Assembly: GCA_013150955.1 (NCBI GenBank)
Contig: JAADJD010000062.1
Coordinates: 49,416 to 113,415, forward strand
Origin: Calditrichota bacterium
Lineage (GTDB): Bacteria; Calditrichota; Calditrichia; RBG-13-44-9; J042
Reading direction: 5' to 3'
DNA: 64,000 nucleotides
Shown here: piece after piece, positions 3,733 to 63,360 of the stretch
Layout of the letters: every line of letters begins with the position of its first letter
Numbering within the stretch: position 1 is the stretch's first letter
Translations under genes and position numbers: made by a program
The notes under the pieces: generated by a model
Seen by the model: the letters and a program-made list of their open reading frames with translations, nothing else
Databases searched by the model: none
Told to the model about the DNA's origin: nothing

Positions 3733-4150
3733 CATTCATTCCCGCTACCGGATTCATCCCGAAATGGTGAAAAAACTGGTTCAATACGTGCTGAAACTGG
3801 AAAAAATGAATGCTCGCGAAATCAGCGTGGTGTTTGTGGATGACGAGTACCTGCGAAAGCTTCACCGGGAATTTTTCAATGACGATAGCTATACGGACGT
3901 GATGGCTTTCGACCTGTCGGAAAATGAAGGGCTGGAAGGGGAAATTTACGTTTCGCTGGATCGGGCTCGATATTTTGCTGGAAAATACCGGGAACCCTTC
4001 TCCCGCGAAGTCGCCCGGTTAATTATTCACGGCCTGCTGCACCTGAAGGGATACGACGATAAAACCACCGCCCAGAAGCAGGATATGCACCGGCGGGAAA
4101 ATCAACTGCTGGCAGACTTTCCCCACATCAGCAAAATACTGGACGAGTAG
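3689..4150 (+). CDS. ybeY: endoribonuclease YbeY (rRNA maturation factor)
   Basis: HGLLHLKGYDD matches the H-x3-H-x5-H metal motif. The gene follows the 7TM-HD gene as in conserved phoH-pgpH-ybeY clusters. The start may be 3707 (MRTKIDV). Confidence 0.85.
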   Translation: MPKPPKMRTKIDVHNIHSRYRIHPEMVKKLVQYVLKLEKMNAREISVVFVDDEYLRKLHREFFNDDSYTDVMAFDLSENEGLEGEIYVSLDRARYFAGKYREPFSREVARLIIHGLLHLKGYDDKTTAQKQDMHRRENQLLADFPHISKILDE

Positions 4151-4242
4151 GCCACGGGAAAGATGTGGATTTTTTTCCATTCAACGATTATATTTCTTAG
4201 TAAATGGATCAGTGAAACTAAGAGAGGAGATCATAAAAAGAG

Positions 4243-5547
4243 TTGATCAGCGAACTTATTCTCTACACAATTGTCTTCTTCATCTTACTCAGTCTCTCCG
4301 CTTTCTTTTCCGGTTCAGAAACAGCTTACTTCTCCCTGTCGCCGGCCACGGTGGATCGTTTTCGCAGTTCGCGGAAACGGGCTGAACAACGAGTAGCCAC
4401 CCTGTTAACCAATCCGCGGCAGTTGCTGATCACCATCGTTGTCGGGAACACGCTGGTAAACATCACCACCGCCTCGCTGGCGGCCATCCTGACCGAGCGC
4501 ATCTCCAGGGCCATGCAGGTCAGCCAGCACATTGGCCTCATCGTTGATGTGATTGTAGTAACCTTTGTCATACTGATTGCCAGCGAAATATTGCCCAAGG
4601 TGATTGCCGTCCGGGACGCCGAACGATACGCCCGCCTGAGCAGTCGCTTTCTTTCCTTTTTCTACTACCTGATTTTTCCCGTCAGCTATTTCCTGGCCCG
4701 ATTCACCCGATTCCTCCAGAAACGCCTGGGATTCACCGAGGACAAAACTTTCCTCTCCGAAGAGGAGCTGAAAACTCTGGTGGAAATGGGGGAAGAACAC
4801 GGGACGCTTCAAAAGGACGAGCGGGAAATGATCCACAGCATCTTCGAGTTTGGGGAAACTACAGTAAAAGAGATTATGGTTCCGCGAACAGACATGGTTT
4901 GCGTGGAGGCCAGCACCACCCTTACCGATCTTATGAAACTGGTGAAAACCAAATTGCATTCGCGCATTCCCGTCTATAAGGGGCGGATTGATAACGTCAT
5001 TGGAATACTGTATGTTAAAGACCTGCTGCCCTATCTCACCAAACGGCGCCGGGAACGGCTGGATCTGGAGAAGCTGGTTCGTCCGGCTTACTTTGTACCC
5101 GAACAAAAGAAGATCGACGAACTGTTGCGCGAGTTCCAGAAAGAACGCATCCACATGGCACTGGTGGTGGATGAGTACGGGGGCATTGCGGGACTGGTTA
5201 CCCTGGAGGACATTATTGAGGAAATCGTTGGAGAAATACAGGACGAGTACGACAAGGAAGCGCCATTGTACAAAAAAATCGATGAAAACACCTTCATCGT
5301 GGATGGCCGCATGCCGCTGGAAGAAATCAACGAGGAACTGCACCTGAATCTGCCCACAGAAGAAGGGTTCGAAACCATCAGCGGATTCATCCTGAGCAAG
5401 CTGGGAGCCCTTCCCAAAGAAAAGGAAAAAGTCGAGTACGATGGTTACGTGTTCATCGTCGAACGGGTAACCCGGAATCGCATCATCAAGGTGCGGATTG
5501 AAAAGATACAACCGGATGTGCGGGTAGAGGATGAAGTCCAGAGCTGA
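4243..5547 (+). CDS. HlyC/CorC-family protein (DUF21 membrane domain, CBS pair, CorC_HlyC C-terminal domain)
   Basis: The N-terminus has four hydrophobic helices with the GSETAY motif, followed by CBS domains and a transporter-associated C-terminus. A TTG start at 4243 sits 13 nt downstream of AGAGAGGAGA. Confidence 0.8.
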   Translation: MISELILYTIVFFILLSLSAFFSGSETAYFSLSPATVDRFRSSRKRAEQRVATLLTNPRQLLITIVVGNTLVNITTASLAAILTERISRAMQVSQHIGLIVDVIVVTFVILIASEILPKVIAVRDAERYARLSSRFLSFFYYLIFPVSYFLARFTRFLQKRLGFTEDKTFLSEEELKTLVEMGEEHGTLQKDEREMIHSIFEFGETTVKEIMVPRTDMVCVEASTTLTDLMKLVKTKLHSRIPVYKGRIDNVIGILYVKDLLPYLTKRRRERLDLEKLVRPAYFVPEQKKIDELLREFQKERIHMALVVDEYGGIAGLVTLEDIIEEIVGEIQDEYDKEAPLYKKIDENTFIVDGRMPLEEINEELHLNLPTEEGFETISGFILSKLGALPKEKEKVEYDGYVFIVERVTRNRIIKVRIEKIQPDVRVEDEVQS

Positions 5548-52307: not shown

Positions 52308-53141
52308 TCAAACGTCTATCTGGATGTTTATTACCGGCCCGGTGAACAACGGCAACTGCAGGTACAGGTCGGGTTGACCGGCAAGCCTTTCGAGCCAATC
52401 CTTAAGCAATCCGAACTGTAAAAACCACGGGAGCGGGTCGATGTACTCAAAGGCCAGGGCATATTTGCGACCGGGCGTGGGATTTTCCAGCAGGCGCCAG
52501 AATCGGGTGCGGGCGTCCTCGACCATGGCCGCTGCTCGTTGCTGCAGAAAGGAAGAGATGTCTGCCGTACTCGTTGACGCAGTGCTCTTCAACCACCGGT
52601 AGAAATCCTGCATAAAGGTGCTGGCCACATCGGTCATGATGTAATCCCCCAAACGCAGATTGAATTTGAGATCGGATTCATCGACCCGAACATTTTCCAG
52701 ATGAAAAATGGGGGCTTCGGTGGCAAATGTTTCCGGCACAAACCGATGGCCATAAACCGTGATAAGAGGTGCCAGATACAGGCTACACAGAAGAACCGTT
52801 TTTGACAGGAAAGCCGCGGTTTCCGAAGGAAAATGCGATTCCGAAAAGGGAATGGGAAACGGAAATGCCAGGCGGATGAACGGTTCTTTTTCCAATTGCG
52901 GATATTGTGCGACGGCTGTGTCGTCGGCAGCCACCACTCCAATCCGGCGATACCGAAACTTGCGCACCAGTAAATTCAGAAGGACTTCATTCACATAGGG
53001 ATCGGTAACGGCAATAACACCTTTTACGTTGGCCACCAGATACAGATACTGATTCCAGGGTACGAGCGTCATCCGTATTTCCTCTCCCGCTCTGTTAGAA
53101 TTTAACCAATAGTGAATATCCAGCAAACAGATAATGCACAA
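52308..53141 (-). CDS. hypothetical protein (277 aa)
   Basis: Clean ORF, no motif. The start could be internal (MTLVPW at about 53072). Confidence 0.4.
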   Translation of the reverse strand: MCIICLLDIHYWLNSNRAGEEIRMTLVPWNQYLYLVANVKGVIAVTDPYVNEVLLNLLVRKFRYRRIGVVAADDTAVAQYPQLEKEPFIRLAFPFPIPFSESHFPSETAAFLSKTVLLCSLYLAPLITVYGHRFVPETFATEAPIFHLENVRVDESDLKFNLRLGDYIMTDVASTFMQDFYRWLKSTASTSTADISSFLQQRAAAMVEDARTRFWRLLENPTPGRKYALAFEYIDPLPWFLQFGLLKDWLERLAGQPDLYLQLPLFTGPVINIQIDV

Positions 53142-55432: not shown

Positions 55433-55524
55433 GAAATGAACAATCCCTTCCTGCGTCCCGGTGCAGGAAGGGATTCACCCATCCCAAAGTTTTCCCGATT
55501 CGCCCCATTAATCATCGGCTATCC

Positions 55525-55652: not shown

Positions 55653-57019
55653 AATTTGTAAGAAAGACCGATCATGACCCGCGTTACCCGGATATCTTCC
55701 AGCGTTCCACCCGGCGTCAAGGCGTCTTCGGACTCCTGCTTCCAGGCACCATACAGATAGGTGATGTTTAACGATACGTACTGATCCAGTTTAAAGCCCA
55801 ATCCAGAGGTCAAATACACCCGATCCATCGTTTTGGGGGCACCCTGGTAAGGCGCGGGAATGTAAATGTAACCACCGCGCACACGAAGCATTTCCCCCAG
55901 TGCCCATTCACCGCCGATCTGATAGCGGATGGTCTCCCGATACTCCCGCCGGATAACGCGATTTTCATCCAGTAAAGCGGCATAATCGGGATCGTCCATG
56001 GAATTCTCCGGGATGACAAACCGGGTTTGCGACCAATCCCGATACCGGAAACTGGCGGCCAGGGTGAACGGCTTCACCCTCAACGAAATACCGCCATCGA
56101 AATAAAACGGCGTCTGGACTTTGTACTGGAATTCTCCTCGATCCAGTTCTTGCTGGTCACTAAAACCATCGTCGTAGACCAGTTCATCGGTTGCCAGATA
56201 GGATTCGGTTACCGTAAAGGTCACCGGCAATCCAATGGTAGCCCCCAGACGGGCAAATCCGCCCAGTTTAAACATACCCCCAATTTTCATCCCGATGGCC
56301 GAATACTGGGACTGGATGGACTCTTCGTATTTGTACGAATAAAAATCGGCTACCATTTTAGGTTCTGAGTATTCATTGTAAATATCTTCCTGGTAAAAGA
56401 ACAATTGATAATTTTCCCGTCCCCGCCAGATGTCCAGACTGACCCCGAGGTCAAAATTGGGGGACAACGCAATGGCCGCCGCAACGCTCCAGTTCCGTAA
56501 TCCACCTTCGTTGTTCACTTCCTCGGTCTGCTGGACATTCTTATCAAACGGGTAATAAACTTCCTGCCCATCTTCGATAACCGGGATTTCCAGACCATTG
56601 CTCTGGGTATTGAATCCCTCAAAGAGCAGGGAACGATCAAAATCTTTCACCCGGTTGTAACCAAAGCCAAGCACAAAGCTGCCTCGCGTGGTAGGAAGAG
56701 GCAGGGCAAATCCAATCGCCCGCACCTGGGTAAAGCCCTGACTTTGATCGGTGGTTACACCATAAAAGGTTGCCGAATTGTTGAAATTTATGTGAGACAA
56801 TTCTCCATAAAATTCCGATTGCCGCAGGGAAGCCAGTCCCGCTGGATTCCAGTAGATGGATAAATAATTATCCGTGGTTGCGGTGAAAGCACCGCCCATG
56901 GACAGGGCACGGGCACCAAAGCCCATCTCGTCCTGCACAATCCGAACCGCATCGAACGCACTTTGACCCCACAGGTTGACACCGAGCATCAGTAACAGAG
57001 AAACAACACCCCGCCACAT
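55649..57019 (-). CDS. outer-membrane beta-barrel protein, FadL-like (paralogue of the 41244-42533 gene)
   Basis: The signal peptide, the NPAGLA motif and the C-terminal ...LSYKF support the call. Confidence 0.65.
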   Translation of the reverse strand: MWRGVVSLLLMLGVNLWGQSAFDAVRIVQDEMGFGARALSMGGAFTATTDNYLSIYWNPAGLASLRQSEFYGELSHINFNNSATFYGVTTDQSQGFTQVRAIGFALPLPTTRGSFVLGFGYNRVKDFDRSLLFEGFNTQSNGLEIPVIEDGQEVYYPFDKNVQQTEEVNNEGGLRNWSVAAAIALSPNFDLGVSLDIWRGRENYQLFFYQEDIYNEYSEPKMVADFYSYKYEESIQSQYSAIGMKIGGMFKLGGFARLGATIGLPVTFTVTESYLATDELVYDDGFSDQQELDRGEFQYKVQTPFYFDGGISLRVKPFTLAASFRYRDWSQTRFVIPENSMDDPDYAALLDENRVIRREYRETIRYQIGGEWALGEMLRVRGGYIYIPAPYQGAPKTMDRVYLTSGLGFKLDQYVSLNITYLYGAWKQESEDALTPGGTLEDIRVTRVMIGLSYKF

Positions 57020-57047
57020 AAATATTCACTCCCTTCTTTAACCTTTT

Positions 57048-58328
57048 TTAACGCCGTTTAATCGTTGCCCGGGAAGACGTTCCCCGGCTGGAACTGGAAG
57101 AGCGGCTGCTTCCGCTCCAGCTGCTTCGCGAAGAGGAACTGGATGAAGACCGATAACTGGGCCGGCTGGACGATCGAGACGGCGACCGATAGCTGGGCCG
57201 ACTGGAAGAACTGGATCGGCTGGATCGATAGGATGGCCGGGACGAGCTGCTCTTCCGGGCAGGCGCTACCGACTCCTGACGTGACTTTCGATAGCTCCGG
57301 TACTTTTTAGTTTCGCTACTGCGAGTCCGTCGGATTTCCCGGGTGTGCGAAGATCCATTTTCCCGCGCGCGAACCACTTTCTTTTCCGTCCGCCGCGGGC
57401 TTTTAGTCCGAACCACCTTGCGCTCACTTCGCTTTGAAGAGCGGACGTCTTTCTTGACTCGCCTCTTTTCTTCGGTGCTCAATCGGGCGCGTTTGCGCTC
57501 CCGATCGTAAATCTTCCGGATAATGCGCTGCTTGTCCGCATTGCGATTGCCATTAGTTAACTCCTTCGGAACCCGGGTGCGGATAATTTCTGGCGTTCGG
57601 CGCCGATTCCGTTCGCGATCAGGAACCTCCCGCTCCACCACGGTACGCTGTTTCCGCTCCGCCACCTGGCCGCGCTTACCGTTGCTGACCACCGGACTGG
57701 AAGCGACCGGTCGGACACCCCCAACCAGCGTCCGATCCGACGGTTCTCGATCACGAATCAGTGGTTTACGGCGATCCCACTCACGCCGCTTGGTCGGCGC
57801 GCGATCCACCACATATCCATAGTTGATCCATCCGCCCCAGTAAAATCCATCCCAATAATACGGCGAATATCCATAAAACCCCCAATAGCCAGTGTAATAA
57901 TAATCCCACCAGTAGTACGGATAAGACCAATACGGATAATACACCACTACCGGAGGTGGGTAATACCAGAACGGTCGACCAAAATGCAATCCAATGTGAA
58001 CACTAACAAAGGGGCCATAGAAGGGATCATAAAAGAATGGATCGTAATAAAACGGATCATAGAAAAACGGATCGTACCAGCCGCCAACAATGTAATCACG
58101 ATTGTAAAAGTAATAATTTTTAACAATGGTACGACCATAGCCGTAGTCATCGTAAGCCTCTTCCTCGTAAACGGTGTCTACCTCAGCAGTGGTATACTCT
58201 TCATCCGAATACACCACTGTGGTGGAGGTGACACCCCTCGTGGTACCAAACGTGGTATAACATCCCTGAAAAAGTAACAGCGAAACAACCGCTGTTGTTA
58301 TCATCAAAATGGATCGCCAGGATTTCAT
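57048..58328 (-). CDS. unusual lipoprotein with an aromatic-rich (Y/W/F/P) block plus an Arg/Lys/Ser-rich repetitive tail
   Basis: MKSWRSILMITTAVVSLLLFQGC is a signal with lipobox Cys. YDPFF occurs four times and a WYYPPPVVVYYPYWSYPYYWWDYYYTGYWGFYGY block follows. The C-terminal 230 aa carry about 40% R/K/S with three SSSRPSYRS units. GAGGTG lies upstream of ATG 58326-58328. Confidence 0.6.
   Translation of the reverse strand: MKSWRSILMITTAVVSLLLFQGCYTTFGTTRGVTSTTVVYSDEEYTTAEVDTVYEEEAYDDYGYGRTIVKNYYFYNRDYIVGGWYDPFFYDPFYYDPFFYDPFYGPFVSVHIGLHFGRPFWYYPPPVVVYYPYWSYPYYWWDYYYTGYWGFYGYSPYYWDGFYWGGWINYGYVVDRAPTKRREWDRRKPLIRDREPSDRTLVGGVRPVASSPVVSNGKRGQVAERKQRTVVEREVPDRERNRRRTPEIIRTRVPKELTNGNRNADKQRIIRKIYDRERKRARLSTEEKRRVKKDVRSSKRSERKVVRTKSPRRTEKKVVRARENGSSHTREIRRTRSSETKKYRSYRKSRQESVAPARKSSSSRPSYRSSRSSSSSRPSYRSPSRSSSRPSYRSSSSSSSRSSWSGSSRSSSSSRGTSSRATIKRR
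57150..57250 (-). repeat. about 27-30 bp imperfect tandem DNA repeats (x3) encoding the SSSRPSYRS units
   Basis: CGATAACTGGGCCGGCTGGACGATCGAGA, CGATAGCTGGGCCGACTGGAAGAACTGGA and CGATAGGATGGCCGGGACGAGCTGCTCTT. Confidence 0.5.
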
Positions 58329-58363
58329 GTCGATCACCTCACTTTAGTTCTACCCTTTTCTAA

Positions 58364-58380
58364 CTCAATATATGTGCCAA
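58364..58380 (-). promoter_or_regulatory. candidate sigma54 promoter (-24 TGGCAC, N5, -12 TTGAG) upstream of the lipoprotein-OMP operon
   Basis: The minus strand reads TTGGCACATATATTGAGTTA. The -24 element and spacing are exact, but the -12 element is TTGA instead of TTGC. The site lies about 35 nt upstream of the ATG and next to the NtrC-family regulator. Confidence 0.35.
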
Positions 58381-58502
58381 AAGATTCTGTGGAAAAGGGA
58401 ATATCACAAAACGACCGATTTTTCTTGAAAAATCAACGGGTTTGCCCATGCTCCTGAATGGCGGGACGATCAGACCACTGTCAACTTTGTTGACACAAGG
58501 TG

Positions 58503-59951
58503 CTAATCCAGTTTATACTTTGCCAGATCGATCCGGTACCGCTGTAGTTTTTTATGCAGTCCCATGCGACTCAAACCCAATTCCCGTGCCGTCTGGCTGA
58601 TGTTTCCCCGATTTTTTTGCAATGCCCGCTCGATAAAATACCTCTCCATCTGTTCCACCCGTTCTTTTAACTGCAATGCCCCCTGACCATTAAAAGGTGC
58701 TCCGTCTGTCGTGTGGATCTCCGGAAATTCAATCAAATCAGGTGTAATGGCCATCCCATCATCCGCCAGCACAATCGCGCGTTCGATGATATTCTCCAGC
58801 TGACGCACATTGCCCGGGTAATCGTAATCCCGCAACCGTTGGAGCGCTTCCGGGTGGATGCCGGTGATTCGCTTGCCCATCTTCAAGGAATATTTCCGGA
58901 TAAAATGATACACCAGTTCGGGGATATCCTCCCGGCGCTCCCTTAAAGGCGGCAAATGGATGGGAAACACATTCAAACGATAGAACAAATCTTCCCGAAA
59001 TTTGCCTTCCTGCACTGCCCGAGCCAGATCCCGATTGGTTGCGGAAATGACCCGGACATTCACATGAATGGCTTTTTCGGATCCCACCGGGTGAATCTCC
59101 CCTTCCTGCAATACCCGAAGCAGGCGTTTCTGAAATTCCGGGGAGGTTTCTCCAATCTCATCCAGAAAGATGGTTCCGCCATCGGCCAGTTCAAACAATC
59201 CTTTTTTATCGCGAGTGGCCCCGGTAAAGGCCCCTTTTACGTGACCAAATAATTCGCTTTCCAGAAGGGTTTCCGGTAACGAAGCACAATTCTGACTGAC
59301 AAACATTTTATGTTTACGAGGGCCGTTGTAATGAATTGCCCGGGCGACCAATTCTTTGCCCGTGCCGGTTTCCCCGGTGATTAAAACCGTGACGTCCGTG
59401 GGAATCACCTTTTTTAGCAAATGAAACACCTTTTGCATGGCCGGACTTTTGCCAATGATATGGTCGAAGGTGTATTCGGCCTCCATCTCGCGTTGCAGCA
59501 GCAAGTTTTCCGCGGCCAGCCGTTCGTTGGCCTGACGCAATTCTTCCAGTAAGCGTTCATTGTCTTTTTTCAGCTGATAATGTTCAATGGCCCGACGGAC
59601 GATCAGTCGCAACTCATCCGGTTCCCAGGGCTTTTGAATGTAGTAGAAAATTTGCCCCTCATTAATGGCCCGGATAGTGGCATCGATATCGGAATACCCG
59701 GTAATCAGGATGCGCACCGCATCCGGCTGAATGTCTCTGGCCTGCCGCAGGAATTCCACTCCGGTCATTTCGGGCATCCGTTGATCCACCAGTAAAACGG
59801 CAACCGGTTGCTTGCGGATCACTTCCAGAGCCGATAATGGCGAAGAGGACAGGATCACCTCATAGTCCCGTCGTAAAATGCGCTGAATGGCGTGCAAGAT
59901 CCCCTGTTCGTCATCCACGGCCAGAACCGTGTACCGTCGATTCGTTGACAT
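58503..59951 (-). CDS. sigma54-dependent response regulator (NtrC family: REC, AAA+ and Fis-type HTH)
   Basis: The REC domain is followed by GETGTGKE (Walker A), the GAFTGA sigma54-contact loop, ESELFGH and a C-terminal HTH. Confidence 0.9.
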   Translation of the reverse strand: MSTNRRYTVLAVDDEQGILHAIQRILRRDYEVILSSSPLSALEVIRKQPVAVLLVDQRMPEMTGVEFLRQARDIQPDAVRILITGYSDIDATIRAINEGQIFYYIQKPWEPDELRLIVRRAIEHYQLKKDNERLLEELRQANERLAAENLLLQREMEAEYTFDHIIGKSPAMQKVFHLLKKVIPTDVTVLITGETGTGKELVARAIHYNGPRKHKMFVSQNCASLPETLLESELFGHVKGAFTGATRDKKGLFELADGGTIFLDEIGETSPEFQKRLLRVLQEGEIHPVGSEKAIHVNVRVISATNRDLARAVQEGKFREDLFYRLNVFPIHLPPLRERREDIPELVYHFIRKYSLKMGKRITGIHPEALQRLRDYDYPGNVRQLENIIERAIVLADDGMAITPDLIEFPEIHTTDGAPFNGQGALQLKERVEQMERYFIERALQKNRGNISQTARELGLSRMGLHKKLQRYRIDLAKYKLD

Positions 59952-62900
59952 TATTTCCTCTCCTCATCCCTGTTTTTCCCGGTTTCCCTGGAAAGTGGCA
60001 AATAGATCCGAAAACACGTCCCCTTTCCTTCCTGACTTTCAACTTCGATGCGCCCCCCATGATCCTGAATGATCCGGTAACTGATACTCAATCCCAGTCC
60101 CGTTCCCTGGCCCACAGGTTTGGTGGTAAAAAACGGATCAAAGATCCGCGAAAGCACATCGGCTGGAATGCCTTTTCCATCGTCGCGAATCTCCACGCAC
60201 ACTCGATCCCCTTCACTGCGTGTGGTGATCCAGATGTTTCCTTTCCCCTCAATGGCCTGAATGGCATTCAACAAAAGGTTCATGAATACCTGATTGATTT
60301 GCCCGGGCTGACAGACAATTCGGGGTAGCTCGCCATACTTTTTGTGAACCCGAATCCGATCCCGAATTTCGTGGCGCAGAAGGGTCAGGGTCGATTCCAG
60401 GCCTTCGTGTAAATCCACCGACTTGAACGCCGCTTCGTCCAGTCGGGAAAAATTGCGTAAGTTTTGCACCACTTCTTTCACCCGTCGGCTTCCATCCAGG
60501 CTTTCCTGAATCAAACCATTCAAATCGTTTAAAATAAAGTCCAGATCGTATTGATCCTGTAATTGTTGTACCGTTTCTTTTAACTTTTCGGGCAGATCCC
60601 TGGCATCCCGTTGTTTTAAAATGACCTCCAGCAATCGCGAGAGCGCCTCGACATATTCCTGCAGGGTCTTCAAATTGGCATACACAAAGCTAATGGGATT
60701 ATTTAATTCGTGGGCAACCCCCGCGACCAGTTGCCCCAGACTGGACATTTTTTCGCTCTGGATGAGCTGGGCCTGCGCCTCCTTCAATTCCTGATACAAT
60801 CGCCGCAATTCCCGGTTCTTCGCTTCCAGCTCCCGCACATATTTCTCCCGCACCTCGGCCTCAGTCACCTTCTGAATCAACCGCTTGGTCTCTTCGATAT
60901 AGCGATTGTTTTCCACGGCAATGGCGGCCTGATTGGCAATAATCTGCAAAATGCTTCGATCCTCCGCATTCAATTCCCGACGTCTCTCCCCGGTTACCAG
61001 AACAATCACTGCATACAGGTTATCCTCCCGGCCAATCGGGATCAGGTAATCGCAGGGAATTCGGGTGAACTCCGGCAACTGTCTTTGAATCTCATCACAG
61101 GCCAGAATGCGCCCCCCGCTCAGAAGCGCCTGTTTAGACGGGTCGAGCGAGATTTCCGGCATTTGTGGAAGCGTTTTTCCGGAACGGGCCACCTCACGAA
61201 ACACATCGCCCTGCTTTTCCATGACCAGACAGAGCGATATTTCCAGCGCCCGGTGAATGGTGGAAGCCAGCTGGGAGAACAGCTCCTGATTGGTTTTAAT
61301 TAAAATCAAATCCCGCGAAAATGCCTGCAGCAGACGGCGATAGCCAAACCGCTTTTCCTCCACCCGGCGAATTTTCTCCAGCACCACGGTGGCCGCCCCG
61401 ATCACCACCAGCAAAACCCCCAGCTGGGTGGTTAAAATTTTTCGTACCGGCTCTTCCCGATACATCCAGAACACCCCGTAAAGCAGCCCAATCATTAACA
61501 GAATGAAGGCATTAAAACTCACATTGCGCCAGTGGTAGCGCGAGCCAGCCAGGGAAAGAAAGGCCACAATGATGCCAAAAATCAATAACGACAATCCCAG
61601 ATTGATCCAGAAATCCAGTTGTTGAACCAGGCGACCCAGGGAATGCATCATTCGGTAGGACACCTTCCGCAGGCCGGTTTTTTCTTCCACGATGTACACA
61701 TTTCCCGGTTTCAGCCCGGAACGCCAGCGTTCGGTGCCGGAGGGGAAGACGATTCGCGCAGTGTATTGTCCCCCGGCGTCCACCCCAAAATGGGCCACCA
61801 GTTCGCTCAGGGATAAATAACCCTGTCCCCCACTGATTTCCCGAAAACCAACCAGCACCAGGCTGTCCCGCTCATCTCGTTTATACAACCACACCCGGGT
61901 GCCCACAGCATCGCGATTGCTCCCGACCCCTTCAAGGATCAGGCGGACATAATTTTTGTTATTTAACGGATTGAGATACAGAACGGAATGGGTGTCCTTG
62001 TTGGCCACAAATACGTCCAGATCACCATCGTCATCCAGATCCGCTACCGCCACCCCGGTGCTGTAATTCTGGTTTCGAACGGTACCCGGGAGCCGTTCCT
62101 CAAACACCCGTTCCAGCAGCTGCCCATTTCGATTCAAATAAAATTGATTGGGGCCAATGTTGGAGAAAAAAACATCCTGCCACCCGTCGTTGTTTAGATC
62201 AGCAATGATACCGCCATACGCCGGGTAGGGATTGGCCACCTGAAACGGCCGGGGAGCTTCCTCAAATTGCCAGTTCGTGTCCCCGGCCGCTGTATGATTC
62301 AGATACAGGCGACTGTGGCCATCGCGATCCGCAACCAGAAAATCGAGATCGCCATCATTATCCACATCGCCAAAAACCACGCTGTTGCTATTCACCGCGT
62401 GTTGGAGGTGAAACAACGGCAAAGAAACCGGACGGAAGGACATTCCCCCGCGATTTTCATAAAGCGTATCTGGAGCAAACCAATTGCAAACGTAGAGATC
62501 CAGATCACCATCCCCATCCACATCGGCAAAGGCCGCACCCTGACTTACCGCACGCGAAGCCACCCCATATGCCGACGCCCGATCGCGAAAATACCGCCCA
62601 TCGTAATTGATGAACAGATGATTGGCATGGTGCTCGTCCGTAACGAACAAATCCAGGTCACCATCGCCATCCACGTCTCCCCAGATTCCCATATTGCCAT
62701 CCAGGGGACGCCGCAACCCCATCTCTTCGGTCACATCCTGAAAACGAAAATGGGGCAACTGGCGAAACAATCGGGTACTGACCCCCCACCCCAGAATCAG
62801 CACATCCACCCGGCCGTCATCGTCAAAATCGACGGCCGATCCGCCAAGCTCCAGATTAACCTTTTTGCGCGGCATAAGGTTACCCCCCAGGCCGGTGGCG

Positions 62901-63211
62901 ATGGTTCGATCTTCGAAGGTTTGCCCTCCCTGGTTCACAAATAACCGGTTGAGATTCCGAAATCGCACCACATAAAGATCCGGATAACCATCATGATTCA
63001 AATCGCGAAACACCACCCCGTAACTGTCCCCAAACTCCGGTAATAGAGAATGACTCACCGGTTGGGCAAACATCCGGGCGACCCAGAGGGAATCTCCAGT
63101 TGCACCTGCAGAACTCATGAATAAAAAAATCAGGCCAATAGCCCCCAGCCAGCGCATGCTCCCGCACGGTGAAAAGCCTGGGGAACGCTCACAGTAGGTT
63201 ACTGTTTCCAT
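59951..63211 (-). CDS. sensor histidine kinase with extracytoplasmic seven FG-GAP repeats plus UnbV_ASPIC domain, TM, coiled coil, HisKA and HATPase_c
   Basis: Seven D-x-D/N-x-D-G-x-x-D FG-GAP blades are present (for example FGDVDNDGDLDFLV). The ASPIC/UnbV block is VGTRVWLYKRDERDSLVLVGFREISGGQGY. The H-box is HELNNP and the G-boxes are DDGKGIP and GTGLGL. The start is ATG 63209-63211, TTG 63214, or ATG 63157 if the signal peptide is cleaved. Confidence 0.8.
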   Translation of the reverse strand: METVTYCERSPGFSPCGSMRWLGAIGLIFLFMSSAGATGDSLWVARMFAQPVSHSLLPEFGDSYGVVFRDLNHDGYPDLYVVRFRNLNRLFVNQGGQTFEDRTIATGLGGNLMPRKKVNLELGGSAVDFDDDGRVDVLILGWGVSTRLFRQLPHFRFQDVTEEMGLRRPLDGNMGIWGDVDGDGDLDLFVTDEHHANHLFINYDGRYFRDRASAYGVASRAVSQGAAFADVDGDGDLDLYVCNWFAPDTLYENRGGMSFRPVSLPLFHLQHAVNSNSVVFGDVDNDGDLDFLVADRDGHSRLYLNHTAAGDTNWQFEEAPRPFQVANPYPAYGGIIADLNNDGWQDVFFSNIGPNQFYLNRNGQLLERVFEERLPGTVRNQNYSTGVAVADLDDDGDLDVFVANKDTHSVLYLNPLNNKNYVRLILEGVGSNRDAVGTRVWLYKRDERDSLVLVGFREISGGQGYLSLSELVAHFGVDAGGQYTARIVFPSGTERWRSGLKPGNVYIVEEKTGLRKVSYRMMHSLGRLVQQLDFWINLGLSLLIFGIIVAFLSLAGSRYHWRNVSFNAFILLMIGLLYGVFWMYREEPVRKILTTQLGVLLVVIGAATVVLEKIRRVEEKRFGYRRLLQAFSRDLILIKTNQELFSQLASTIHRALEISLCLVMEKQGDVFREVARSGKTLPQMPEISLDPSKQALLSGGRILACDEIQRQLPEFTRIPCDYLIPIGREDNLYAVIVLVTGERRRELNAEDRSILQIIANQAAIAVENNRYIEETKRLIQKVTEAEVREKYVRELEAKNRELRRLYQELKEAQAQLIQSEKMSSLGQLVAGVAHELNNPISFVYANLKTLQEYVEALSRLLEVILKQRDARDLPEKLKETVQQLQDQYDLDFILNDLNGLIQESLDGSRRVKEVVQNLRNFSRLDEAAFKSVDLHEGLESTLTLLRHEIRDRIRVHKKYGELPRIVCQPGQINQVFMNLLLNAIQAIEGKGNIWITTRSEGDRVCVEIRDDGKGIPADVLSRIFDPFFTTKPVGQGTGLGLSISYRIIQDHGGRIEVESQEGKGTCFRIYLPLSRETGKNRDEERK

Positions 63212-63360
63212 CAATGTGGACTTTTCCCCGTTGCATTAAGTGTTTAAGCATGTAACGACTCGAATTACCCTGAATACACAACGCTTAAGTAAAGATGTTC
63301 ACGCAGATAAAACGAACCGCGATTTGCAAAAATTCCTCTGAAACCATTCGATTTGAAGCC

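Follow-up and report, generated by a model that had tools for sequence, protein, structure and literature searches.

A lipoprotein of aromatic and arginine-rich blocks encoded beside a FadL-superfamily outer-membrane barrel in Calditrichota and related phyla

The DNA analysed here, called the window below, is a stretch of 64,000 nucleotides from a Calditrichota metagenome-assembled genome (MAG; contig JAADJD010000062.1), and the subject of this report is a gene on its reverse strand which encodes a lipoprotein of highly unusual composition. On this strand, the gene of a sensor histidine kinase is followed by that of an NtrC-type regulator, the two overlapping where the one ends and the other starts, then by a candidate sigma-54-type promoter element, by the lipoprotein gene and, 28 nt after its stop, by the gene of an outer-membrane protein (OMP) of the FadL superfamily (Table 1). 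This gap is exactly that given in a preliminary description of the locus, in which the two genes were taken to form an operon; they lie in different reading frames. The true start of the kinase probably lies downstream of the listed TTG, and the terminator-like hairpin that follows the OMP gene overlaps the 3' end of a convergent EamA gene.

Table 1. Features of the lipoprotein-barrel locus in the window, with the positions of the short lipoprotein genes of related loci (aa, amino acids)
Feature	Position	Strand	Basis or remark
Sensor histidine kinase	59951..63214	(-)	Pfam: FG-GAP/ASPIC-UnbV propeller-type N-terminal sensor, GAF, HisKA, HATPase; membrane segments
NtrC-type regulator/sigma-54 activator, NOX38855.1	58503..59951	(-)	Pfam: receiver, AAA+ Sigma54_activat, Fis-type helix-turn-helix
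Sigma-54-type -24/-12 element (candidate), TGGCAC-N5-TTGA	58365..58379	(-)	37-51 nt upstream of lipoprotein ATG
Shine-Dalgarno GAGGTGA	58334..58340	(-)	6 nt 5' of lipoprotein ATG at 58328; sequence reading
Lipoprotein precursor gene	57048..58328	(-)	426 aa + stop; family found by homology/profile searches
Signal peptide (aa 1-22), lipobox L-F-Q-G, lipid-anchor Cys23	58260..58328	(-)	family consensus L-[TQS]-[GS]-C
C-Y-T-T, module-specific mature N-terminus	58251..58262	(-)	family C-Y-T-Q-[LF]-[AG]
Acidic Thr/Tyr/Glu/Asp-rich linker, aa 23-70 (48 aa), net -7	58119..58262	(-)	composition
D-T-V, aa 51-53, in conserved D-T-[VILT]-[YV]-Y	58170..58178	(-)	matches Bacteroidota O-glycosylation sequon D[ST][AILVMT]
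Aromatic block, aa 71-180 (110 aa), net -4	57789..58118	(-)	45% Tyr/Trp/Phe, 12% Pro, without Lys/Arg clusters
Four YDPF[FY] pentapeptides, aa 85-104	58017..58076	(-)	period 15 nt
Boundary motif K-R-R-E-W-D-R-R, aa 180-187	57768..57791	(-)	family K-K-R-[DP]-[FW]-[DG]-R-R
Basic Arg/Lys/Ser tail, aa 181-426 (246 aa), net +54, ends -KRR	57051..57788	(-)	composition
Three SSSRPSYRS units, aa 361, 374, 386	57147..57248	(-)	diverged codons; spacing 39 and 36 nt
Shine-Dalgarno AAGGGAG	57029..57035	(-)	5' of OMP ATG at 57019; sequence reading
Partner OMP, FadL/Toluene_X superfamily, 456 aa, NOX38854.1	55649..57019	(-)	Pfam; N-P-A-G-L hatch motif
Terminator-like hairpin, 13-bp stem then T-rich run	55442..55475	(-)	~175 nt 3' of OMP stop; consensus scan only
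Short C-x-x-C-H lipoprotein loci	L030, L038, L040, L041, L045, L046; L089:6221-6757; L070 ~3990-4610		

The start of the lipoprotein is placed at the ATG at 58328 in preference to the GTG at 58337, because the Shine-Dalgarno sequence stands 6 nt before the former. The protein begins with MKSWRSILMITTAVVSLLLFQG|C, and its signal peptide ends in LLFQG|C, the lipobox-like end already recognised in the preliminary description, which gives the arrangement of a signal peptidase II substrate, i.e., a signal peptide followed by a lipobox [LVI][ASTVI][GAS]-C. The residues found at lipobox positions -3 and -2, F and Q, are looser than the Escherichia coli consensus.

The mature chain is made up of an acidic linker, an aromatic block and a basic tail. 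The block, a region of about 110 residues dominated by Tyr, Trp, Phe and Pro as first described, with the aromatic string quoted at the time present verbatim, comprises 26% Tyr, 12% Pro, 11% Phe, 11% Gly and 8% Trp, and the tail, likewise as rich in Arg, Lys and Ser as had been stated, comprises 24% Arg, 22% Ser and 8% Lys, its final 100 residues reaching 44% Ser and 22% Arg. The window has 55 open frames that are 200 aa or longer, and this protein is the extreme outlier of them on both counts, given that its best 110-aa stretch holds 46% Tyr/Trp/Phe (22% in the runner-up frame) and its best 240-aa stretch 54% Arg/Lys/Ser (23% in the runner-up).

A tail of this kind might be read as a silaffin-like template for biomineralisation or as a condenser of nucleic acids, which is very improbable. 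What speaks for such a function is composition, above all that of the Ser- and Arg-rich final 100 residues with their SSSRPSYRS units, but the tail is rich in Arg, in contrast to the Lys-rich KxxK units of silaffins with their polyamine and phosphate modifications, has no homology to silaffins or protamines in Pfam, NCBIfam or the PDB, and belongs to a secreted lipoprotein, which cannot meet the chromosome, while no mineral-related gene is linked to it. The comparison with protamines and Ser/Arg-type tails made at the outset finds no support either: the tail is that of a secreted lipoprotein without homology in these searches, and the Arg content of the whole tail is far under protamine levels. 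The adhesive and phase-separating proteins also named at the outset are analogies by composition.

The repeated units of the two blocks differ in kind. The motif YDPF does occur four times, as had been reported, but the full pentapeptide YDPFF only twice, the other two copies being YDPFY, and the 15-nt period of these units is a DNA tandem repeat detected by Tandem Repeats Finder (TRF) at 58024-58073. The three SSSRPSYRS peptides of the tail were also found, but not the tandem 27-30 bp DNA repeats that had been proposed to encode them: the units are spaced more widely, and TRF detected no DNA tandem repeat there. As the differences between the 27-nt units are mostly synonymous, including AGY/TCN serine switches (units 1 and 2 differ at 13 of the 27 positions), the motif is conserved as a peptide and not as DNA.

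These observations bear on the possibility that low-complexity DNA has given rise to the open frame as a by-product and that there is no gene at all, an objection that the preliminary description had raised against itself and which did not hold. The deposited annotation apparently places no protein between NOX38854.1 and NOX38855.1, which would fit such a by-product, but the frame runs through 426 open codons where the remaining five frames contain 5-35 stops, it is preceded by a Shine-Dalgarno sequence and begins with a lipobox-bearing signal peptide, identical peptide units are written in different codons, and approximately 1,000 homologous clusters share its architecture and its syntenic position. 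The chance of a by-product is thus negligible, and the gene and its family are real and not a repeat artefact. Given that the accessions of the flanking OMP and regulator are consecutive and that the lipoprotein sequence, in any version, is absent from the protein collection searched, the annotation of this Calditrichota MAG has apparently skipped the gene. Annotation may more generally miss the low-complexity lipoproteins of this family.

Searches of Pfam, NCBIfam and PDB sequences with the window lipoprotein returned no match, in agreement with the earlier failure to recognise a domain or an enzyme in it, and Pfam returned none for the Bacteroidales-type and short variants of the lipoprotein. 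An initial homology search yielded 8 proteins of the same layout, and a profile built from these recovered 79 proteins in one database and 1,011 clusters at E<=1e-3 (352 at E<=1e-10) among representatives at 50% identity, nearly all of the matches listed in this latter library being full-length. The profile of a separately aligned Bacteroidales-type subset adds 601 proteins. The family matches are named "hypothetical protein" in their source records, and a literature search for a described counterpart found none, beyond BamG/BamH and the Neisseria heparin-binding antigen (NHBA) as analogies.

The succession of acidic, aromatic and basic blocks is conserved in this family. In the 71 sequences taken from the loci described below, 64 of which are long forms, the aromatic block holds 26-47% Tyr/Trp/Phe (33-47% in the long forms), the tail has a net charge of +6 to +63 (+16 to +63 in the long forms), and about 60 have a linker with a net negative charge. 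The lipobox Cys is invariant (71/71) and opens the family motif C-Y-T-Q-[LF]-[AG]; further along the chain are the linker motif D-T-[VILT]-[YV]-Y, an [IV]-[VI]-x-x-Y-Y motif, several D-P-[YW] motifs and the boundary motif K-K-R-[DP]-[FW]-[DG]-R-R, the central Arg of which is present in 94% of 64 sequences. Single Arg positions are conserved in the tail, and the two final residues are Arg or Lys in over 90% of the members. Since these motifs are conserved by position, the family is real beyond a shared composition.

A check on structure and disorder had been proposed in the preliminary description. An AlphaFold2 model from an alignment of 42 sequences contains a confident helix for the signal peptide only, with a predicted local distance difference test (pLDDT) score of less than 50 for nearly the whole mature chain and no secondary structure predicted in it, so that the mature lipoprotein is predicted to be intrinsically disordered, at least when alone. 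One segment of the aromatic block, VSVHIGLHFG, was considered as an amphipathic beta-strand that might augment a barrel, and was set aside: a crude pattern search gave hits in 16 of the 71 sequences, none of them at that element, and missed the window's own segment.

The linker motif includes D51-T52-V53, which conforms to the O-glycosylation sequon of secreted Bacteroidota proteins (D-[ST]-[AILVMT]). The sequon is found in 44 of the 71 sequences, with 13.5 expected from shuffled controls, and in 109 of 115 Bacteroidales-type sequences, with 47.7 expected, which suggests that this site may be glycosylated.

An aromatic block with a Ser/Arg tail ending in RR is also carried by proteins without a Cys-Tyr-Thr (CYT) lipobox, at L086 (P0026) and L087 (P0056), and further such proteins are P0030, P0031, P0044, P0046, P0055, P0057, P0068 and P0074. 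Their N-terminal parts are either a folded domain that starts with 'ADETITVTA...' or a DUF4384 domain, and the disordered aromatic/Ser-Arg cassette therefore looks modular.

The partner of the window lipoprotein scores 50.9 bits with Pfam Toluene_X (PF03349), for which the gathering threshold is 29.7, and carries the NPA hatch motif, N58-P59-A60 being invariant in 33 barrels of its clade and G61 and L62 present in at least 90% of them. With the curated NCBIfam models it scores 58.6 bits for BamG (NF053685, cut-off 250), 58.1 bits for the PorV/PorQ family (NF033709, cut-off 90) and 27.7 bits for PorV (NF033710, cut-off 250), and the partner barrels of Rhodothermota and Bacteroidales, with BamG scores of 37.7 and 41.9 bits, likewise fall short of the curated cut-offs for BamG and PorV. 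When a profile of the 33 clade sequences is compared with the PDB, the closest chains are CymD (6e-10), TbuX (1.6e-9) and FadL (3e-7), with TodX also among them, followed by PorV (3e-4) and an "outer membrane protein" chain, 9hjm_F, which is possibly BamG (6e-3). A single-sequence AlphaFold2 model of the barrel has a mean pLDDT of 29.5. By these sequence comparisons, the partner barrels are a distinct clade of the FadL superfamily, separate from both BamG and PorV.

The window barrel shares with the FadL, TodX, TbuX and CymD channels the Toluene_X domain and the invariant hatch, and has them as its best PDB sequence matches, but it is only distantly related to them (the best E with the 33-sequence profile is 6e-10) and no catabolic genes are linked to it. 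With the PorV and PorQ proteins of type IX secretion, which are FadL-like barrels of the Fibrobacteres-Chlorobi-Bacteroidetes (FCB) group that hold partners, it shares a hatch motif that matches the PorV_fam model; it differs in its score, which lies below the family cut-off, and in that its lipoprotein has no type IX C-terminal domain and no type IX secretion genes are linked.

The conservation of the gene pair was assessed in a set of loci obtained by scanning one genome per species with a four-barrel alignment, which gave 135 relatives, of which 80 loci were taken. These come mostly from Calditrichota, Marinimicrobia and KSB1, and the rest from MAGs labelled Zhuqueibacterota, Ignavibacteriae, Cytophagia and Bacteroidota. 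Within 3.5 kb upstream of the barrel gene and on the same strand, a lipoprotein rich in aromatic residues and in Arg, Lys and Ser is encoded in 77 of the 79 assessable loci, 76 of them with a lipobox-CYT start, so that the operon-like pair of the preliminary description is kept across the FCB group. The pair is also found in Rhodocaloribacter litoris, a cultured member of the Rhodothermota, in a Bacteroidales MAG, in Bacteroidetes GWF2, in Ignavibacteriales and in one further lineage, and the barrels of the Rhodocaloribacter and Bacteroidales pairs are homologous to that of the window (E 3e-40 and 2e-23, respectively). In R. litoris, the pair is GQ464_014515 and the gene downstream of it. The apparent exceptions have various causes, i.e., an extra gene of about 240 aa between lipoprotein and barrel (L007, L014, L019), an intervening short C-x-x-C-H lipoprotein gene (L070) or merely a longer non-coding gap (L009, L065), and the lipoprotein is missing from none of these six loci. 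The pairing is therefore near-obligate, and with one barrel clade. Because it is so conserved, the idea of an OMP-dependent route of docking or display, raised in the preliminary description, is a reasonable one.

Two further observations concern the surroundings of the pair. The extra 240-aa protein (~4230-4955 in L007, L014 and L019) has a signal peptide and ends in ...GVAAYF, and may be a small beta-barrel; the three loci are of the Calditrichota type, one of the MAGs being labelled Deltaproteobacteria. In Rhodothermota and Bacteroidota (L084, L085, L088), the pair is adjoined divergently by proS, the gene of prolyl-tRNA synthetase, and one member of the lipoprotein family is mislabelled 'prolyl-tRNA, partial'.

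The mature N-terminus provides a second link between the two proteins. When lipoprotein-like N-termini were collected from the window and 90 loci (113 candidates), C-Y-T was found in 82 of 82 lipoproteins of the module and in none of the 31 other candidates. The 82 comprise 70 long aromatic proteins, 9 short proteins with a C-x-x-C-H motif and 3 other small, disordered proteins with basic tails, and in some operons two different CYT-lipoproteins precede one barrel. A tag shared by differing clients of one barrel clade is as would be expected of a docking or sorting signal, and is, in our estimation, the best argument within these data that lipoprotein and barrel are physically linked. The small, disordered, basic-tailed CYT-lipoproteins are encoded near barrel genes, at L053:3068-3439, L076:8951-9511 and L078:8824-9396, and one barrel clade may serve several lipoprotein clients.

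The short C-x-x-C-H lipoprotein, of about 180-200 aa, combines the CYT start with an invariant C-x-x-C-H, a 'PWW' motif and a Ser/Gly/Asn tail that ends in KKK or RK, and its gene lies between those of the long lipoprotein and the barrel in at least 8 loci (6 of Calditrichota and 2 of Ignavibacteriota). C-x-x-C-H is the c-type haem-binding motif, and the pair could on this basis be a redox or cross-linking module, in which the Tyr/Trp chain would act as a relay for electron or hole hopping, or as a substrate for dityrosine formation, together with the small haem lipoprotein of some lineages. The abundance of Tyr and Trp in the aromatic block would suit this function. On the other hand, the short gene is absent from the window, where the intergenic gap is of 28 nt, a Pfam scan of one example and a related variant gave no match, the cytochrome families included, the motif allows one haem at most, and no other redox genes are linked. 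A redox module is accordingly a rather improbable account of the pair.

The window mature N-terminus, C-Y-T-T-F-G-T, like the family consensus, has no Asp or Glu, and the Bacteroidales-type N-terminus reads C-T-S-G-S-Y. The canonical export signal of the surface lipoproteins of Bacteroidota is acidic (PMC12578637), and no acidic residue is found in the window protein within six positions after the Cys. Given this, the lipoprotein may instead face the periplasm, as an envelope tether or stress buffer in the outer membrane's inner leaflet, where the cationic tail would bind peptidoglycan or anionic phospholipid. Such a protein would replace Lpp, non-covalently, in phyla without it, would be induced through sigma-54, and the barrel would be a co-regulated neighbour or would be regulated from the periplasmic side.

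Besides the missing signal, the conserved D-T-[VILT] sequon, which fits periplasmic O-glycosylation, and the conserved dibasic C-terminus are consistent with a tether of this type, and sigma-54 regulons often concern the cell exterior. However, the C-terminal residue is Arg in 48 and Lys in 13 of 64 sequences, which makes a covalent attachment of the Lpp type unlikely, neither the near-obligate pairing with a single barrel clade nor the module-specific CYT is explained, and regulated rather than constitutive expression would be odd for a structural tether. We regard the tether as unlikely, if worth keeping in view.

The regulatory genes upstream of the pair are also conserved. In about 38 loci, the gene immediately upstream of that of the lipoprotein encodes an orthologue of the window regulator (50-65% identity), homologous kinases were found by tblastn in the equivalent position in about 29, and kinase and NtrC-type regulator precede the pair in Calditrichota and Marinimicrobia. 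Of 35 regulator-linked loci, 28 have the pattern TGG[CT]A[CT]-N5-TTG[ACT] no more than 150 nt from the start codon (background 0.024 per 150 nt), and in most of these 28 it stands 48-64 nt before the start codon. Compared with TGGCAC-N5-TTGC, the window element is perfect in its -24 half and has GA for the canonical GC in its -12 half, and across the loci this half is GA or GT more often than GC. Since the window alone contains 4 matches to the pattern where 1.3 are expected, the argument for a promoter is one of conserved position. Taken together, these sequences indicate that the putative sigma-54 element and the linkage to kinase and regulator are conserved.

A perfect palindrome just past the regulator stop, TGTCAAC-AAA-GTTGACA (58479-58495(-)), 167 nt upstream of the lipoprotein ATG, was considered as a binding site for the activator and rejected, as it has no counterpart in 32 related loci. 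At another locus (L090:1388-4912), the FG-GAP kinase and the sigma-54 activator are replaced by a propeller kinase of the Reg_prop/Y_Y_Y type and a regulator of the LuxR type, i.e., this operon has recruited two two-component systems that are unrelated and both have sensors of the propeller type.

Regulated expression of this kind, together with the affinities of the barrel, would also fit the uptake of a substrate, with the lipoprotein as a capture accessory of a FadL-type channel in the manner of SusD-SusC or VolA-FadL. The disordered aromatic block and the cationic tail would gather hydrophobic or anionic-amphiphilic molecules, such as fatty acids, lipids or aromatic compounds, these would enter by way of the lateral opening of the barrel, and the kinase and regulator would induce the pair in response to the substrate. 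In favour of uptake are the score of the barrel above the Toluene_X threshold, its nearest PDB relatives (CymD, TbuX, FadL and TodX), the invariant hatch and the presence of different two-component systems with propeller-type sensors in different lineages, and in Vibrio cholerae the gene of the lipoprotein VolA is reportedly co-transcribed with that of a FadL homologue. Likewise in favour, tbuX and todX, two genes of the FadL family, are members of regulated clusters for the catabolism of aromatic compounds. VolA is, however, a folded lipase, and the window lipoprotein has neither a fold nor an enzyme motif. Catabolic genes are linked to the pair at none of the loci examined, and its neighbour in Bacteroidota and Rhodothermota is a housekeeping gene. 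A fully disordered chain with a 246-aa tail of net charge +54 is also unlike the known substrate-binding lipoproteins, and we know of no FadL channel that requires an accessory protein. Uptake is, on balance, not a probable function, with a chance that is small without being trivial.

A precedent for a barrel that holds a lipoprotein is the FadL-like BamG, which binds the conserved lipidated N-terminus of the surface lipoprotein BamH between its strands or in a groove, and whose paralogue BamG2 is encoded in an operon with BamH2 (PMC12611786, PMC12578637). The window pair resembles BamG-BamH in that it joins an FCB barrel of the FadL superfamily to a lipoprotein, and it might be supposed to be the Calditrichota version of it. 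Weak BamG matches are indeed obtained with 31 of the 33 clade barrels (best E 3.4e-26), BamG and BamH are conserved across most FCB phyla (PMC12611786), and BamG2-BamH2 is itself an operon of a barrel plus a lipoprotein. The window barrel is nevertheless far from the BamG cut-off, and the pair also occurs in Bacteroidales and Bacteroidetes GWF2, within a phylum in which BamG is reported to be universal, with barrels that again score far under the cut-off. BamH is a folded protein of two domains, with a carbohydrate-binding-like fold and an acidic export signal, while the window lipoprotein is predicted to be disordered, lacks the signal and has no similarity to BamH. The linkage of the pair to sigma-54 and two-component control would be unexpected for an essential subunit of the machinery that assembles beta-barrels. 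For the pair to be a version of BamG-BamH is thus highly unlikely.

Other systems provide partial parallels. In RcsF-OmpA/C/F, a protein with a lipid anchor associates through a disordered segment with an outer-membrane barrel, or threads it, but RcsF differs in its folded signalling domain and its use of general porins, whereas the window chain is predicted to be wholly disordered and its barrel is dedicated. In FUS-type domains, mussel foot proteins and the spore-coat proteins CotC/CotU and CotG, an aromatic plus Arg/Lys/Ser composition drives cation-pi association or the assembly of a coat. The window protein has no sequence relationship with these Tyr/Arg sticker polymers and Bacillus coat proteins, and differs from them in joining both chemistries in one lipid-anchored protein of the envelope. 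A final parallel is with the lipoprotein NHBA, whose chain includes a long disordered region and binds polyanions through an Arg-rich segment (PMC6104945), as the window lipoprotein has a long region predicted to be disordered and an Arg-rich segment. NHBA differs in its folded C-terminal beta-barrel domain and its short Arg motif, is not homologous to the window protein and has neither an aromatic block nor a partner barrel.

The explanation put forward here, tentatively and with a little less than even confidence, is that the two genes constitute an envelope module specific to the FCB group, in which the barrel docks the lipidated N-terminus of the lipoprotein and thereby holds an inducible, self-associating polymer that binds polyanions. 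After lipidation, the mature lipoprotein would be transferred to the outer membrane, where its conserved N-terminus (lipidated Cys-Tyr-Thr-Gln/Thr-Leu/Phe) would dock on the cognate 14-strand-type barrel or in its lateral opening, which would anchor, and probably expose, the disordered chain. The aromatic block, which is weakly acidic, would associate with the Arg-rich tail through cation-pi and electrostatic contacts, forming a multivalent sticky polymer, and the tail would bind polyanions such as DNA, acidic polysaccharide, lipopolysaccharide or peptidoglycan. The outcome may be an inducible coat or an adhesive layer. In Calditrichota and Marinimicrobia, the window included, the propeller-sensor kinase and the NtrC-type regulator would drive expression from the sigma-54 promoter.

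Several points weigh against this explanation. The missing acidic signal argues against the usual route to the surface, and allows for a periplasmic location of the lipoprotein. The barrel profile is nearer to the classical transporters CymD, TbuX and FadL than to PorV or the putative BamG chain. No FadL-like barrel is adjoining in either of two contexts examined for proteins that carry the aromatic and Ser/Arg cassette without CYT. Docking on the barrel, and with it a surface location, is argued from analogy and synteny, and self-association and polyanion binding are argued from composition, so that each of these steps is to be read as conditional.

A wider proposal can be derived from the docking explanation, one that is more speculative and which we consider doubtful. 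The barrel clade and the CYT tag may together represent an unrecognised FCB route of docking and display, possibly also of export, which would be independent of the acidic signal and would place disordered clients on the surface, where the Tyr/Trp block and the Arg tail would condense, or become oxidatively cross-linked, into an inducible coat. The clients of such a route would be the aromatic/Arg-Ser polymer, the small C-x-x-C-H lipoproteins and other CYT-tagged chains.

Elsewhere in the window, an open reading frame of 277 aa at 52308-53141(-) gave no Pfam match, and is located between the frame of a small membrane protein and a sodium:solute symporter gene.

The lipoprotein family described here is unnamed, is covered by no model in Pfam or NCBIfam and lacks a relative of solved structure, and its partners are a new clade of the FadL superfamily, the logic of a barrel with a cognate lipoprotein being known from BamG-BamH. 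The module is probably an undescribed, inducible part of the cell envelope, and its occurrence in Calditrichota, Marinimicrobia, KSB1, Zhuqueibacterota, Ignavibacteriota, Rhodothermota and Bacteroidota points to an old envelope component of the FCB group. The lipoprotein family is widespread, with about 1,000 clusters at 50% identity and a further 601 Bacteroidales-type proteins, and its members can be missed by gene callers. Cultured carriers are Rhodocaloribacter litoris and apparently Caldithrix abyssi, the latter seen only through a MAG so labelled (L053), and a natural polymer of a Tyr/Trp block and an Arg/Ser block is of interest for the chemistry of adhesion and condensates. If the explanation is true, the docking-platform principle of BamG-BamH would extend to a second, regulated system with an entirely disordered client, which would be unusual among bacterial envelope proteins.

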